64,000 bases of DNA from an uncultured Rhodanobacteraceae bacterium (GTDB lineage Bacteria > Pseudomonadota > Gammaproteobacteria > Xanthomonadales > Rhodanobacteraceae): the NCBI GenBank assembly GCA_964583865.1, contig CAZOXZ010000001.1, forward strand, positions 760 through 64,759. The letters are read 5' to 3'. Below the pieces are notes generated by a model, which did no database searches, was not told where the DNA came from, and saw only the letters and a list, made by a program, of their open reading frames with translations. Position 1 is the stretch's first letter; every line of letters begins with the position of its first letter. This document shows, piece after piece, positions 58,017 through 61,857 of the stretch. A program made the translations under genes and the position numbers.

Positions 58017-58973
58017 CTACGGACTGGCCGAACCGGGGGCCTGCCGCGTGGCATTGACCCATTGCATACTCGGAAAGGGTTCCGAACAATCCGGTGAATC
58101 GCGACAACGTGAGATCGCGTCGCGGACCAGATTGCTGAAGCCATGCACCGCCCCGGCCAGTCCCGATCTGTACCTTCGTTCCGCCGCGGATGGAGAAGCG
58201 TCGATGTACGCCTGTACGCGTTGCAGCGCACCGTGATCGCCGAGAAAATCCGCCCAGTACAGCAGGGGGATGATGACATCCGCTTCCTGACCCTCCGGGG
58301 CATTCCGTCCTCTGCCCCAAGCTTCGAGATAGCCCTCGAATGGGCTGTTGACCTGATTCAACACCTCCAACGTCGAGCCGTAGAGCTGCGCCGCGTCGGA
58401 TCTTCCGGCCTCCGCAGGCGACAAGCCCGTGTTCTCTTGCATCGCGTCCCGGGCGCGGATGTGCAGAAAAAACGCCGCCTTGACGTTGCCATTCTCCATG
58501 AGAAGGCGGAGCTGATCGTTGCTCATCGCCTCGGCCGCCAGTACATCTTCCGGCATCGGGTAGCCATGTGCCGCCATCCACGCAATGGCTTCAGGGCTGC
58601 GGTCGTGATAGACGCCGAAAAAGGCCTTGTCAAAGTCGCGCAACGTCTCCTGCTGCGAGAGACTGAACTGGTTCATCCAGTCCTCGAAGCTGGCCGCGGT
58701 CTGCACCCGCGTCACACCGGCGATCTGGTAACGCTGTGGCACGGGAGCCGTGCCGTCATCGGCAATATGCTGTGTGTCGTTCCCGCTGTGATCTCGGATG
58801 CGAGGCGATTCCGAAGAGGACCCGGATGCAACGGATACCGAAGCGGCGGCCGAAGGCTCGGCCACCGCTCCGTTGTCCGCGGGCTTTTGATCGGCCCGCC
58901 CCAGCCACCAGGTTGTACCGGCAGCCACCACGATCAACAACACCAGCAAGGCAGCAAGTTGTTTTCCAGTCAT
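58017..58973 (-). CDS. membrane-anchored periplasmic protein, paralogue 1 of 3 (unknown family; candidate immunity protein)
   Basis: 318 aa. MTGKQLAALLVLLIVVAAGTTWWLG N-in anchor, then an Ala/Ser-rich linker. Shares the YPMPEDVLAA and NVKAAF core with 59057..60007 and 60090..61037. Confidence 0.7.
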   Translation of the reverse strand: MTGKQLAALLVLLIVVAAGTTWWLGRADQKPADNGAVAEPSAAASVSVASGSSSESPRIRDHSGNDTQHIADDGTAPVPQRYQIAGVTRVQTAASFEDWMNQFSLSQQETLRDFDKAFFGVYHDRSPEAIAWMAAHGYPMPEDVLAAEAMSNDQLRLLMENGNVKAAFFLHIRARDAMQENTGLSPAEAGRSDAAQLYGSTLEVLNQVNSPFEGYLEAWGRGRNAPEGQEADVIIPLLYWADFLGDHGALQRVQAYIDASPSAAERRYRSGLAGAVHGFSNLVRDAISRCRDSPDCSEPFPSMQWVNATRQAPGSASP

Positions 58974-59056
58974 GGCTCACATCCATTCCGTGGCAGCGCA
59001 GGTTGCTCTGCAAGAGCCACGAACCCGTCAGCTTTCGTGACCGGGTGAGTCAAACT

Positions 59057-60007
59057 CTAATCCGACGGGTAGTAATGCACTGTCGGATTATTCTGAGAAC
59101 TCACACCAATCCTTCTTGGGCAAAACTCAGCGATGGCACGCGAATACAGCAGAGACATCGAGATGACACCGGCATATATCTTTTGTCTAGCATCAACACG
59201 TGATCGATCTGAGACGATAAATCTGTCGACGAGCCGACCGCTCCGAAAATCGCCCAAATGTTTTGCCCAGACCAGCGCTGCCAGTATCTTGGCGTCTCGG
59301 CTGTCTTGGCCAGTCATGAGACTGGCTTCCTGCGCCTCAAGAAAAGCCTTGTACGGGCTGTTCGCGGTCTTGAGCAAGTGCTTGACCCTGAGCAAATCCT
59401 TGAAATATTGAGGATTATTCTCATACACCGTGCTCTTGTTCAGCTTGCCATCAGACAGCGCCACCTTGGCATTGATTTCAGCAACGTTCCGGCTTTTGAG
59501 CAGGAAGGCGGCCTTGACATTGCCTTCCTTGACCAGATCACGCAGTGTCTCGCTGCTCAACCCCTGCGCAGCCAGCACGTCCTCCGGCATGGGATAACCA
59601 TTTTGGGCCATCCATGCGACCGTCTCCGGGTTGTGTACGCGGTACACGCCATGGTTGCGCTTGTTGAAGTCACGCAGGATAGCTTGATCCGCCTCGGAGA
59701 AATGTGCCATCCAGTCCTCGAAGCTAGCCGCGGTCTGCACCTGTGTCACGCCAGCGATCTGGTAACGCCGTGGCACGGGAGCCGTGCCGTCATCGGCAAT
59801 ATGCTGTGTGTCGTTCTCGCTGTGATCTCGCGTGCGCGGCGATTCCGAGGCGGGTCCGGCTGCGACGGATGCCGAAGCGGCGGCCGACGTCTCGGCCACC
59901 GCCCCGTTGTCCGCGGGCTTTTGATCGGCCCGACCCAACCACCAGGTTGCGCCGGCCACCACCACGATCACCAACACCAGCAAGGCAGCACGTTGTTTTG
60001 CGTTCAT
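59057..60007 (-). CDS. membrane-anchored periplasmic protein, paralogue 2 of 3
   Basis: Start MNAKQRAALLVLVIVVVAG (cat 60005..60007). The 5' half is nearly identical in DNA to paralogue 3. The 3' half is divergent and more A/T-rich. Confidence 0.7.
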   Translation of the reverse strand: MNAKQRAALLVLVIVVVAGATWWLGRADQKPADNGAVAETSAAASASVAAGPASESPRTRDHSENDTQHIADDGTAPVPRRYQIAGVTQVQTAASFEDWMAHFSEADQAILRDFNKRNHGVYRVHNPETVAWMAQNGYPMPEDVLAAQGLSSETLRDLVKEGNVKAAFLLKSRNVAEINAKVALSDGKLNKSTVYENNPQYFKDLLRVKHLLKTANSPYKAFLEAQEASLMTGQDSRDAKILAALVWAKHLGDFRSGRLVDRFIVSDRSRVDARQKIYAGVISMSLLYSRAIAEFCPRRIGVSSQNNPTVHYYPSD

Positions 60008-60089
60008 GGCTCGCCTCCGTTCACTTGTGTAACACAAGGTTCGCTAAAGCTGCAACACACGAACGGTTGCCTAGTGCCGATCACAAACC

Positions 60090-61037
60090 TCAGCGCCCGT
60101 ATGGGGCTGGAGCAGTCGGATTGTGTGCTGACCGTACGGCGATGGATGATCCGGTTTGCTCGCGGAAACTTTGCATGTAAAGCGCTGCCGTGGCGGTGGC
60201 TGTCTCCATGATCGTGAGTCTTCTTGCCATACGCTCCGGATCAGAGTGCACAAAACGCTCGGCCAGACTGTAGGCGCGGAGGTCACCCAATGACGACGCC
60301 CATTTGAGAGCAGCCAGCACCTGTACATCCTCATAGTCCCGGTTACCTGTTAGTCTCGCCGAATCCGCTTCGAGAAACGCCTTGTACGGACTCTGCGCCT
60401 TGTTGATGACATGCTTGGTATACTGCATCCAGTCCTCCCTGTATTGTGGGTTTTTGCGCAAGATATAACCCATTTTTTCGTCGTTTTCTTCCATTTTCCT
60501 TTTGATCTCGGCAATATCACGGCTACGCAGCAGAAACGCCGCCTTGACATTGCCTTCCTTGACCAGGTCACGCAGTGTCTCACGGCTCAGCGCCTGCGCG
60601 GCCAGCACGTCTTCCGGCATGGGGTAGCCATGCTGGGCCATCCACGCGACCGTTTCCGGGTTGTGCACGCGGTACACGCCATGGTTGCGCTTGTTGAAGT
60701 CACGCAGGATGGCCTGGTCCGCCTCGGAGAAATGTGCCATCCAGTCCTCGAAGCTGGCCGCGGTCTGCACCCGCGTCACCCCGGCAATCTGGTAACGCCG
60801 TGGCACGGGAGCCGTGCCGTCATCGGCAATATGCTGTGTGTCGTTCTCGCTGTGATCTCGCGTGCGCGGCGATTCCGAGGACGGCCCGCCTGCGACAGAA
60901 CCCGAAGCGGTGGCCGAAGGCTCGGCCACCGCTCCGTTGTCCGCGGACTTTTGATCGGCCCGACCCAACCACCAGGTTGTGCCGGCAGCCACCACGATCA
61001 CCAACACCAGCAAGGCGACAAAGCGTTTTGCGTTCAT
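60090..61037 (-). CDS. membrane-anchored periplasmic protein, paralogue 3 of 3
   Basis: Start MNAKRFVALLVLVIVVAAG (cat 61035..61037). It forms an ATGA overlap with the stop of the PLA2-like gene. Confidence 0.72.
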   Translation of the reverse strand: MNAKRFVALLVLVIVVAAGTTWWLGRADQKSADNGAVAEPSATASGSVAGGPSSESPRTRDHSENDTQHIADDGTAPVPRRYQIAGVTRVQTAASFEDWMAHFSEADQAILRDFNKRNHGVYRVHNPETVAWMAQHGYPMPEDVLAAQALSRETLRDLVKEGNVKAAFLLRSRDIAEIKRKMEENDEKMGYILRKNPQYREDWMQYTKHVINKAQSPYKAFLEADSARLTGNRDYEDVQVLAALKWASSLGDLRAYSLAERFVHSDPERMARRLTIMETATATAALYMQSFREQTGSSIAVRSAHNPTAPAPYGR

Positions 61038-61795
61038 GGCTCGCACCCGTTGGCTTTCATGGCGTTGCCCCATGCCGAGCACTTCTTCGCGGCCTGGGCA
61101 TCGTCATAAGCTGATTGGCCCGCCGCAACAACCGTTCCATGGTACAGCGTCGCATAGGCGTTGCAGTCATCCGGTGCGGTGCTCACATCGCAAAAATCAT
61201 GCATCGCCGTGCCGAAAGCGGTATCACAGCTTCTCTTGGCTTGTACCCCAGCCGCGTAGCAGTGGTCGTGATCGTTACAATAGGCACCAAAGTCAATGGA
61301 TGGGTTGTCCTTCACCGGGCGCTCCATATCGCCGGAAAACCTGGGGTGGCCCAGCAAGTAGCCCCAACTGGACAAATAAGCCAACGCAGTCGCGCCCAAG
61401 GCCGTGCCGAACGGCCCGGAACCACAGTCGTTGGGTGCCCAGCTGGCACCACTGGCGGACGGCAAGCCGGGCGATGCCGGGTAAGTGCTCATGCTGCAAC
61501 CAGCCGGCTTGAACTGTTCAAGAACTGAACACACGTGCTGGGACACGGGCCCGTTGGCGCGCGGGAAGGTCGCGTGATTGGGGATGGGCATGTTGGGCCA
61601 TCCGGGCAGAAATGCGTTGCCGGACAGCCAGTAGGGACTCTGAATGATATATCCGTTGACGACGATCGCTTCGAGTGGCTGGCCTTCTTGTGCCATCACC
61701 GAGCCTGCAGTCGCCAGGGACGCAAGAAAAACAAGCACGTCAACCGCCAGTTGACGCCCGATGCTTGTTGCTTGTTGCTTGTTGCTTGTTGCCAA
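61034..61795 (-). CDS. secreted Cys-rich phospholipase A2-like protein
   Basis: 253 aa as listed (TTG start). Signal peptide ...LAVDVLVFLASLATAGSVMA/QEG and 10 Cys. Motifs NDCGSG (Ca-loop-like), YCNDHDHCY (CCxxHDxC-like His-Asp) and SCDTAFGTAMHDFC appear in sPLA2 order. An ATG with an AGGA RBS at 61799 is out of frame by +1. Confidence 0.62.
   Translation of the reverse strand: MATSNKQQATSIGRQLAVDVLVFLASLATAGSVMAQEGQPLEAIVVNGYIIQSPYWLSGNAFLPGWPNMPIPNHATFPRANGPVSQHVCSVLEQFKPAGCSMSTYPASPGLPSASGASWAPNDCGSGPFGTALGATALAYLSSWGYLLGHPRFSGDMERPVKDNPSIDFGAYCNDHDHCYAAGVQAKRSCDTAFGTAMHDFCDVSTAPDDCNAYATLYHGTVVAAGQSAYDDAQAAKKCSAWGNAMKANGCEP
61763..61790 (-). repeat. heptanucleotide tandem repeat (AACAAGC)x4 at the 5' end of the PLA2-like gene
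   Basis: The forward strand reads gcttgtt x4 (61763-69, 70-76, 77-83, 84-90) plus a partial gc. Confidence 0.95.
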
Positions 61796-61857
61796 ACATG
61801 ATAGTTGATCCTACGTGATCACCCCAGGGAACGGCACCGCCTTGATGCCTGAAGGTG

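Follow-up and report, generated by a model that had tools for sequence, protein, structure and literature searches.

A bacteriocin-like toxin/immunity module, formed by a phospholipase A2 (PLA2)-type toxin and anchored periplasmic immunity proteins, is proposed here for a locus in a stretch of 64,000 nucleotides from an uncultured Rhodanobacteraceae bacterium (contig CAZOXZ010000001.1, referred to below as the window), and we put the probability of this reading at about 0.6. In this locus the gene for the putative toxin is followed by three tandem paralogous genes for its candidate immunity proteins, which are called partners 1 to 3 (par1, par2 and par3). The reading is drawn mainly from comparison of the locus with its relatives, in which the partners outlive degraded or absent toxins and the reverse was never found.

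Four consecutive open reading frames (ORFs) on the minus strand span 58017..61799 in the ORF listing of the window (Table 1). An earlier note, made from the letters of this DNA, had described these ORFs, the 10 cysteines of the toxin, its motifs NDCGSG, YCNDHDHCY and SCDTAF, and the overlap of the toxin TGA with the par1 ATG as ATGA at 61034..61037, all of which were verified in the sequence. The note had also described the toxin gene as coupled to all three paralogues. This holds for par1, which overlaps the toxin stop, but par2 and par3 follow after gaps of ~80 nt (about 82-83) and have ribosome-binding contexts of their own. The period of the partner array is 1030-1034 nt. As both families are conserved and syntenic in ~30 independent loci, the toxin and partner ORFs are, on this comparative evidence, real genes and not chance ORFs.

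Relatives were collected by looking up identical proteins and by scanning genome and metagenome collections for patterns, giving 55 loci whose six-frame translations were scored with hidden Markov models of both families. The layout of a signal-peptide toxin directly upstream of one to three partners is shared by some 30 related loci, the majority of which come from Rhodanobacteraceae and other metagenome-assembled genomes (MAGs) of Lysobacterales, and the hosts of relatives comprise Rhodanobacteraceae, Rudaea, other Lysobacterales MAGs, an uncultured gammaproteobacterium and Halothiobacillus. Throughout the 55 loci every toxin copy was found directly upstream of one to three same-strand partners, often overlapping with them. 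The order is kept even for partner relatives scoring at E values of 1e-20 to 1e-33 (loci L028, L030 and L031) and is seen again in the Halothiobacillus MAG. Most loci have a single partner, L012 and L021 have two and the window has three. Among the loci examined, five look-ups seeded with toxins included, no toxin was found without a partner.

The partner, by contrast, persists intact beside a broken or missing toxin in at least eight or nine lineages, and the toxin has been lost in different ways. In eight contigs (L001-6, L019 and L034) it carries a +1 frameshift with the lesion at ACTTAAG (L001 9075..9795), and in four others (L031-33 and L047) an in-frame stop follows its signal peptide (L031 221..916). 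Only C-terminal toxin remnants of ~15-50 residues precede the intact partner in L008/17, L024, L036 and L040, the catalytic core has been deleted in L023, and the toxin is absent altogether from L020/35 and from L050, the last of which has two partners. In L024, where the toxin amounts to ~15 codons, the ORF 5' of the orphan partner (~5150..5330) starts MTITTLSSRKLNQDIGRTKLAAALGPVLITDRGKPAHVLLSIEAYQRLV and looks by eye like an antitoxin of the Phd/YefM type.

The strict order of toxin and then partner, together with the repeated decay of the toxin beside intact partners, bears out the effector/immunity-like architecture that had been read into the single locus. A toxin/immunity relationship is favoured over an enzyme and its foldase because the partners outlive degraded or absent toxins and never the reverse. 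It makes sense for an immunity gene to outlive its toxin because it would still protect against the toxin of neighbours, whereas a foldase or an inhibitor acting only in cis would have no reason to persist.

The same observations bear on the alternative that survives best, namely that the protein is an ordinary secreted PLA2 directed against eukaryotic or fungal membranes or nutrient lipids, that the partner keeps it inactive in transit and that neither has an interbacterial role. Accessory proteins of some secreted phospholipases, of the PhlA/PhlB type, are reported to keep the enzyme inactive in the producer in this way. The Sec signal and the lack of a bacterial delivery domain would suit such self-protection, as would the overlap of the toxin stop with the partner start and the fact that the solved relatives, PLA2s from Streptomyces and fungi, are not described as antibacterial. 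A cis-only inhibitor is useless without its enzyme, however, and yet in at least eight lineages the partner is intact although the toxin is degraded or absent; arrays of two or three diverged partners per single toxin also speak against it. We regard this explanation as unlikely, although it deserves more weight than the others considered below.

The membership of the toxin in the PLA2 superfamily, suggested originally by its motifs, was examined by profile searches. Taken alone, the window toxin has its best Pfam match, a sub-threshold one, with PLA2G12 (PF06951; E = 3e-4, residues 172-236); the Pfam search gave no match to PF09056 and a single-sequence search against PDB sequences gave none at all. 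A first round of homologue searches returned one relative and a second round, seeded with four sequences, ~50, and from these a family alignment and profile of 49 sequences was obtained. The profile matched the PDB entries 7ygk (E = 9.8e-8), 1faz from S. violaceoruber (1.9e-7), the Tuber group XIII enzyme 4aup (3.6e-5) and 8k1w (1.4e-4). PF09056 was matched by 27 of the 49 members and PF06951 by 13, the best E values among the members being 9e-8 and 7e-6. Homology of the toxin to the bacterial/fungal/group XII branch of secreted PLA2s is thereby established at the level of sequence profiles. A resemblance to the group III (bee-venom) layout over the Streptomyces type, which the earlier note had preferred, finds no support: whatever similarity could be detected was with the Streptomyces/fungal type (1faz, 7ygk, 4aup; PF09056) or with group XII, and the group III Pfam family was absent at E values up to 1 for the window toxin and up to 0.01 for the 49 members.

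Within the 49 sequences C124, P160, F169, C173, H176 and Y180 are invariant and N122, G123, G125, D177 and D191 are at least 90% conserved. In the profile alignment the C-x-x-H-D-x-x-Y helix and D191 align to 'ACARHDFGY...RIDSAF' of 1faz, and D191 is also aligned to the D of 'RIDDNF' in 7ygk and 4aup. The NDCGSG segment had been taken for a Ca-loop-like motif. The loop is indeed conserved, but D156-M157 of the toxin stands opposite the Asp-Leu of the 'DLCT' segment of 1faz, so that NDCGSG need not be the Ca loop. Positions 179 and 190 covary, being Cys/Cys in some members, the window toxin included, and non-Cys/non-Cys in others, which is consistent with an optional extra disulfide.

An AlphaFold2 model of the toxin (mean predicted local distance difference test score, pLDDT, 76; above 87 for residues ~90-130 and 151-253) is all-alpha apart from a beta-hairpin and consists of a helix, the hairpin and four further helices, with the signal peptide as a helix detached from the fold. 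Its best fold match in BFVD is a siphovirus protein named 'Phospholipase A2' (probability 0.99, target template-modelling score 0.59, root-mean-square deviation 2.8 Å over 67 columns), a weak match at E = 0.2, and the confirmation of a PLA2 fold that can be taken from the model is weak. A scan of viral contigs gave no relatives of the toxin, so it is not a typical phage cargo gene, although one relative (L016, 1..12702) adjoins a phage tail tape-measure gene, a Peptidase_S24 repressor-like gene and an SRAP gene.

Like the PF09056 enzymes (1faz/1kp4 and 4aup), the toxin is small, secreted, all-alpha and disulfide-bonded in prediction, and its C-x-x-H-D-x-x-Y helix, the Asp of the next helix and the upstream Asp-Leu segment all align with theirs. 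It differs from them in lacking the Y-x-N of the CxxHxxxYxN signature and in having a conserved NGCGxG loop, a helix and hairpin, two C-terminal helices and a conserved N-terminal motif as extras. The CNxHDxCY motif and the NGCG-type loop resemble those of the group XII PLA2s, but the loop of the toxin lies ~50 residues upstream of the His, not ~20, and the setting is a bacterial one with an immunity-like partner. Tox-PLA2 is a recognised warhead of polymorphic toxins, for which signal-peptide ('T2SS', type II secretion system) trafficking is listed and an immunity protein is not known (PMC3482391). The toxin described here shares this trafficking and differs in having a dedicated partner family.

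The partner resisted assignment, as the earlier note had found. No Pfam family was matched by any of 23 diverse partner sequences, PADLOC returned no match, and neither a sequence match in the PDB nor, with the full-length par1 model in Foldseek, a PDB fold match was obtained, the solved lipase-foldase complex included. Weak matches to the NCBIfam families T7SS_Rv3446c, LpqS and RodZ, which lay over the low-complexity anchor and linker and far below the cut-offs, were rejected. In the par1 model (pLDDT 83), residues 3-27 form a transmembrane helix, 28-67 are disordered (pLDDT below 50) and ~70-300 fold into a helical domain (pLDDT above 90), in agreement with the N-terminal anchor, linker and periplasm-facing domain of ~230 residues that had been described. 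Only ~4-5 residues precede the hydrophobic helix, hence there is no cytoplasmic domain, and an anti-sigma or signalling role was rejected as unlikely on the ground that only ~5 residues would be cytoplasmic. On the basis of the model the partner is a new periplasmic family with no known fold relative detected.

A profile search with the partner gave 307 representative clusters at E <=1e-3 and 235 at <=1e-10, and almost all clusters among the matches listed have a length of 260-335 residues. The family is recognisable by the conserved motifs AWMxxxGYPMPEDVLAA, GNxKAA, SP(F/Y)xx(F/Y)L and LGDxRA. Lipoprotein-type N-termini are apparent by eye in two distant partners (P0016 and P0120), and with either type of N-terminus the domain is predicted to face the periplasm.

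The gross architecture of the partner invites comparison with the lipase foldase Lif, which has an N-terminal anchor, an Ala/Ser/Pro-rich linker and an all-helical periplasmic domain. The partner has the same order of anchor, linker and helical periplasmic domain and its gene likewise comes directly after that of a secreted lipolytic enzyme, to which it is translationally coupled, so a dedicated periplasmic foldase or secretion chaperone that folds the disulfide-rich enzyme was considered. However, none of the 23 partner sequences matches Lipase_chap (PF03280) at E values up to 0.05, and there is no fold similarity either. Neither orphan partners nor multi-copy, diverged arrays are expected of a foldase, and the toxin is of another enzyme class, not an alpha/beta-hydrolase lipase. 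A Lif pair as such was ruled out by the absent sequence and fold similarity together with the orphan partners, and a Lif-like helper in the wider sense seems improbable.

The three partners of the window form a mosaic. Their anchors and linkers are 81-84% identical and their N-terminal halves 68-96%, but their C-terminal halves only 19-38%, and the latter are no closer to each other than are partners from different genera. Between genomes the identity of the anchor and linker is only 15-32%. This pattern suggests homogenised 5' parts joined to C-terminal specificity regions that were exchanged or have diversified fast, be it through gene conversion at the 5' end or through a swap of the C-terminal half. 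Because anchor, linker and N-terminal half are nearly identical while the C-terminal halves are very different, the array would probably cover the cognate toxin and variant toxins of competitors. Remnants of the toxin 3' end ('GAGCCATGA') lie just 5' of par2 (NGGEP-stop, 60008..60030) and of par3 (NGCEP-stop, 58974..58996), both on the minus strand; therefore the duplicated unit included the toxin 3' end and the partner ribosome-binding context. The version before par2 creates a stronger GGAGG ribosome-binding site.

The 5' end of the toxin gene is unusual. The only in-frame start is a TTG at 61795, which lies 4 nt past an out-of-frame ATG. This ATG is the one served by the Shine-Dalgarno sequence; as sequenced it reads MFGNKQQATSNKHRASTGG and meets a stop after 19 codons. 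The perfect heptanucleotide repeat of Table 1 lies between it and the hydrophobic core of the signal peptide, and when one repeat unit was removed in silico the ATG came into frame with a full signal peptide, MFGNKQQATSIGRQLAVDVLVFLASLATAGSVMA/QEG.... The toxin of L018, which is ~37% identical, has the same arrangement (5220..5290): GGGAGGAAG-ATGATG is followed by (GCAACAG)x3 with the ATG at the same +1 offset, and removal of one unit again gives a complete, textbook signal peptide. Programmed ribosomal frameshifting at the repeat was considered and rejected, as the sequence lacks an X XXY YYZ slippery site and a slip of one unit explains both loci.

Homopolymers directly after a TTGACA (-35-like) hexamer 5' of the toxin are present in three further lineages (L001, L042 and L048). 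In the L001 lineage (L001 8973..9010; also L002-L006 and L019) the tract varies between C11, C12 and C13 among contigs that come from different samples and are otherwise nearly identical, differences in length which could partly be sequencing error, and the L005 contig ends exactly at the poly-C tract. L042 has a C10 tract (~1470..1490), and L048 a G12 tract (~100..125) which is near a contig end and possibly an artefact.

These arrangements resemble contingency loci, such as those of Haemophilus, with starts in several frames before tetranucleotide repeats, and those of Neisseria and Bordetella, with poly-C/G tracts in promoters. Shared with them are a repeat unit that is not a multiple of 3 between the start and the body of the ORF, starts in two frames and, in the relatives, homopolymers after a -35-like hexamer with lengths apparently differing between samples. 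The differences are the low copy number, the window tract with its four copies being short for a phase-variable repeat, the setting in a toxin gene of environmental Lysobacterales, and the fact that the candidate switch of the window is known from one sequence. Slipped-strand phase variation of toxin expression, independently arisen in several lineages, is probable from the sequences.

Three repeats with units of 4-9 nt and at least four copies occur in the 64-kb window, the other two being (TTCGGC)x4 at 7555 and (AGGGAAT)x4 at 17572; the latter, with a 7-nt unit, lies just past a rhomboid-family ORF (16757..17509). Directly after the heptamer repeat, within the region coding for the signal peptide, a terminator-like hairpin is found on the minus strand (61737..61757; GCGTCAACTGGCGGTTGACGT and then GCTTGTTTTT), which may be due to chance or be an attenuator.

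A decaying or silent locus, with the toxin a pseudogene through its out-of-frame start and the array a relic, would account for the misplaced ATG, and several relatives do have clearly dead toxins. Yet the 253-codon ORF is otherwise intact with all conserved residues present, a TTG start is in frame close to the ATG, and the frame defect sits inside a perfect 7-nt repeat that one slip would repair, as also in L018. A dead locus is accordingly harder still to credit than a foldase.

A signal peptide is present at the start of all N-terminally complete members of the toxin family, the divergent L043 and L051 included, and none of these members contains a PAAR, Rhs, LXG, XVIPCD or filamentous-haemagglutinin-type region. 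No family of the type VI, type IV or type II secretion systems (T6SS, T4SS, T2SS) or of contact-dependent inhibition was found by Pfam in the 30 neighbouring ORFs and the four module genes of the window, and the gene tables of the related loci with called genes and Pfam labels contain no VgrG, PAAR, Rhs, Hcp, XVIPCD or CdiB-type neighbour. The ordinary Sec signal without a delivery marker, remarked upon in the window by the earlier note, holds for the window ORFs scanned and for the toxin family as a whole.

The comparison with T6SS phospholipases is nevertheless close in some respects. As in the Tle1-5/Tli pairs, a putative lipolytic toxin is adjacent to a candidate immunity protein that faces the periplasm, and tandem duplication of the latter is possible. 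The module differs from them in its toxin, which is of the PLA2 type and not an alpha/beta hydrolase (GxSxG, Tle1-4) or a phospholipase D (dual HKD, Tle5), in its Sec signal and in having no T6SS linkage in the window or the tabulated related loci. Membership of Tle/Tli was rejected on these grounds, only PLA2 families matching the toxin. A contact-dependent effector/immunity pair, Tle/Tli-like or X-T4SS-like, with its delivery machine elsewhere in the genome, might be argued from this resemblance, from the tandem immunity paralogues at the P. aeruginosa PldB locus and from the window covering only 64 kb of the genome, but it is very improbable given a cleavable-type signal peptide in every N-terminally complete member, where T6SS and T4SS substrates use none, the lack of VgrG, PAAR, Rhs, Hcp, XVIPCD and CdiB-type neighbours in the window ORFs scanned and the tabulated related loci, and a predicted toxin fold unrelated to Tle1-5.

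The mature N-terminus of the toxin offers a hint as to how it might enter a target. Of 40 members, 34 have a motif L-x-x-[VI]-x-[VIT], conserved as L-x-x-V-x-V-(T/N)-(A/G), at a distance of 3-12 residues from the signal peptide, compared with 0.013 expected per 20-residue stretch in other parts of these proteins. Within the N-terminal region, otherwise of low confidence, conservation is highest in (T)-x-L-(P/E/D)-x-V-x-V-T-A-x-T-S-D, which takes the form P-L-E-A-I-V-V-N-G in the window toxin and G-D-I-I-V-V-T-G-Q-R in L051. The TonB-box consensus of TonB-dependent receptors in Xanthomonas is tLDXVXV (PMC1790865), and the toxin motif matches it. The motif also resembles the Ton box of BtuB, PDTLVVTANR (PMC5413942), and the DTMVV motif of pesticin (PMC3390615). 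No TonB-dependent transporter genes for a comparison of TonB boxes were present in the fetched loci. It is hypothesised that the N-terminal motif could act as a TonB box.

The overall design of such a module has precedent in the Burkholderia, Stenotrophomonas and Luteibacter loci for bacteriocins of the colicin M (ColM) type. In Burkholderia, ColM-type bacteriocins with Sec signals (burkhocins) are followed downstream by genes for single-anchor periplasmic immunity proteins, and the ColM-beta bacteriocins of Stenotrophomonas and Luteibacter have the same immunity layout (PMC5821083). What is shared with ColM-type systems (Cmi/BmiB/PmiB) and with pesticin/Pim is an enzymatic toxin that would act in the periplasm and a downstream, same-strand, single-anchor immunity gene; some of the known toxins also have Sec signals and some come from the same host order, Lysobacterales. 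The known toxins have an unstructured N-terminus and a TonB box, where the present toxin has a resemblance in motif only. It further differs in a phospholipase warhead in place of a lipid II phosphatase or muramidase, in having no recognisable receptor-binding domain, and in an immunity protein that is unrelated, much larger (~315 residues) and present as a tandem array of three. By analogy with these systems the module may work like a periplasm-targeting bacteriocin/immunity pair or a minimal polymorphic-toxin system.

In the mechanism that we propose, Sec would export the toxin to the periplasm of the producer, as its signal peptide indicates, and the toxin, to judge from its homologues, would hydrolyse membrane phospholipids from the periplasmic side. 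The partners would be tethered by their N-terminal helix, a flexible linker holding the helical domain of ~230 residues in the periplasm, where, as comparative genomics suggests, they would bind and neutralise the toxin. A partner would in this way protect the producer during transit of the toxin and any carrier cell against the toxin of its neighbours. The toxin might leave by type II secretion or leakage and enter by receptor/TonB-dependent uptake, or it might be carried across in outer-membrane vesicles. Toxin expression would probably be stochastic, as the 7-nt repeat would bring either the strong ATG or the weak TTG into frame, or neither. A more specific version has a phase-variable, Sec-exported PLA2 bacteriocin switched on in a minority of cells by slippage of the 7-nt repeat or, in relatives, of promoter homopolymers, entering related Lysobacterales by its TonB-box-like strand and a TonB-dependent receptor and degrading their membrane phospholipid unless intercepted by one of a polymorphic set of anchored immunity proteins with specificity in their variable C-terminal halves; taken as a whole this version is speculative and somewhat less likely to be right than the self-protection described above.

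Several points weigh against a toxin/immunity module. Partner-only loci could also reflect an independent function of the partner. Most of the related loci are MAG or metagenome contigs, in which some disruptions may stem from misassembly, although eight contigs share the frameshift. The window toxin scores 21.2 bits against PF06951, below the Pfam gathering threshold of 34, and a Foldseek search of the PDB with its full-length model gave no PLA2 and nothing at an E value below 1, probably a problem of sensitivity as the query model included the signal peptide and the disordered N-terminus. As the ATG served by the Shine-Dalgarno sequence is out of frame in the DNA as sequenced, the toxin is possibly poorly expressed or silent. 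No distinct receptor-binding domain is evident in the 253-residue toxin. With its five probable disulfides it would be hard to thread through a TonB-dependent transporter, and engineered disulfides are known to block the import of pesticin (PMC3390615). The lipolytic activity and toxicity of the toxin, like binding and protection by the partners, are predictions.

The positions of the features are collected in Table 1. The module is atypical in composition, with a G+C content of ~0.59 against ~0.65 and a G+C content at third codon positions (GC3) of 0.67-0.71 against 0.79-0.82 in the flanking genes. The low GC3 was counted toward mobility, as were the genomic contexts of the relatives, which are mutually unrelated; the neighbours of L009 (4100..5657) are three transposase/integrase fragments. 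On both sides the module is flanked by housekeeping genes. Read by eye, the genes 3' of par3 encode oligopeptidase A, a patatin-like/cyclic nucleotide monophosphate (cNMP)-binding protein and a gamma-carbonic-anhydrase-like protein, and a shikimate-dehydrogenase-like ORF lies 5' of the toxin. A Pfam survey of the 30 other window ORFs identified a helicase, MacB/HlyD, ArgRS, TopA, DprA, Fmt, AsnB, a phospholipase-C-type phosphoesterase, UbiE and others, and no tRNA genes were found in the 64-kb window. The phosphoesterase (Pfam Phosphoesterase, phospholipase C/acid phosphatase family; 47450..49204, minus strand, E = 1.8e-90) is a second lipid-active enzyme nearby, and the ORF at 55548..57368 on the plus strand has, by eye, a cNMP-binding region and patatin-like GGGxR/GxSxG motifs; neither has an evident link to the module. 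The long ORFs 18169..20619, 27663..28838 and 29323..31746 have high GC3 and no Pfam match at E values up to 1e-5, and may be unannotated families or shadow ORFs.

Table 1 Features of the putative toxin/immunity module, with positions in the window
Feature	Position	Strand	Remarks
Toxin gene	61034..61795	-	253-residue precursor from the in-frame TTG: signal peptide, short low-confidence N-terminal region, disulfide-rich PLA2-superfamily domain (~residues 83-253)
Partner paralogue 1 (par1)	60090..61037	-	315 residues from ATG
Partner paralogue 2 (par2)	59057..60007	-	316 residues; own GGAGG ribosome-binding site
Partner paralogue 3 (par3)	58017..58973	-	318 residues; most diverged C-terminal half of the three
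Shine-Dalgarno AGGA (61809..61812) and, 9 nt later, ATG (61797..61799)	61797..61812	-	From the sequence; only ATG near the 5' end
Heptanucleotide repeat (GCAACAA)x4.4	61762..61792	-	Tandem Repeats Finder: period 7, 100% matches; between ATG and hydrophobic core of signal peptide
Signal peptide, residues 1-35 (...ATAGSVMA/QEG)	61691..61795	-	Aligned with the signal peptides of 40 family members; AxA-type ends
TonB-box-like motif L41-E-A-I-V-V-N-G48	61652..61675	-	Near the mature N-terminus, in a low-pLDDT region; resemblance only
N-(G/D)-C-G-x-G loop, N122-G127	61415..61432	-	Conserved; resembles the Ca-loop motif of secreted and group XII PLA2s; candidate role
Predicted catalytic helix pair C173-N-D-H176-D177-H-C-Y180 and S-C190-D191-T-A-F	61223..61279 (C173-Y180: 61256..61279)	-	Conservation in 49 sequences

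The antibacterial phospholipases known so far are mostly delivered by contact-dependent machines, as are the Tle effectors of the T6SS. Parts of the present system are familiar, namely the PLA2 lineage as a toxin warhead (Tox-PLA2) and bacteriocins with Sec signals and anchored periplasmic immunity. What appears from the sequences to be new is a dedicated partner family with immunity-like evolution, its three-member mosaic array, a conserved TonB-box-like N-terminus and putative repeat-based switches. The window locus and ~30 relatives define a compact two-gene system of a signal-peptide PLA2 and a new, confidently modelled periplasmic family. If the toxin/immunity reading is true, the partner would be a new immunity fold and a natural protein inhibitor of PLA2 enzymes, and the toxin would extend the known diffusible or vesicle-borne bacteriocins in soil Gammaproteobacteria by a class that targets lipids. 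The putatively repeat-controlled starts and promoters, with different repeat types in five lineages, suggest bet-hedging of a weapon that endangers its own producer. Should the phase-variable, TonB-dependent version also be true, this would be the first lipolytic TonB-dependent bacteriocin, with the first immunity family for a PLA2 toxin, and a bacteriocin under contingency-locus control.

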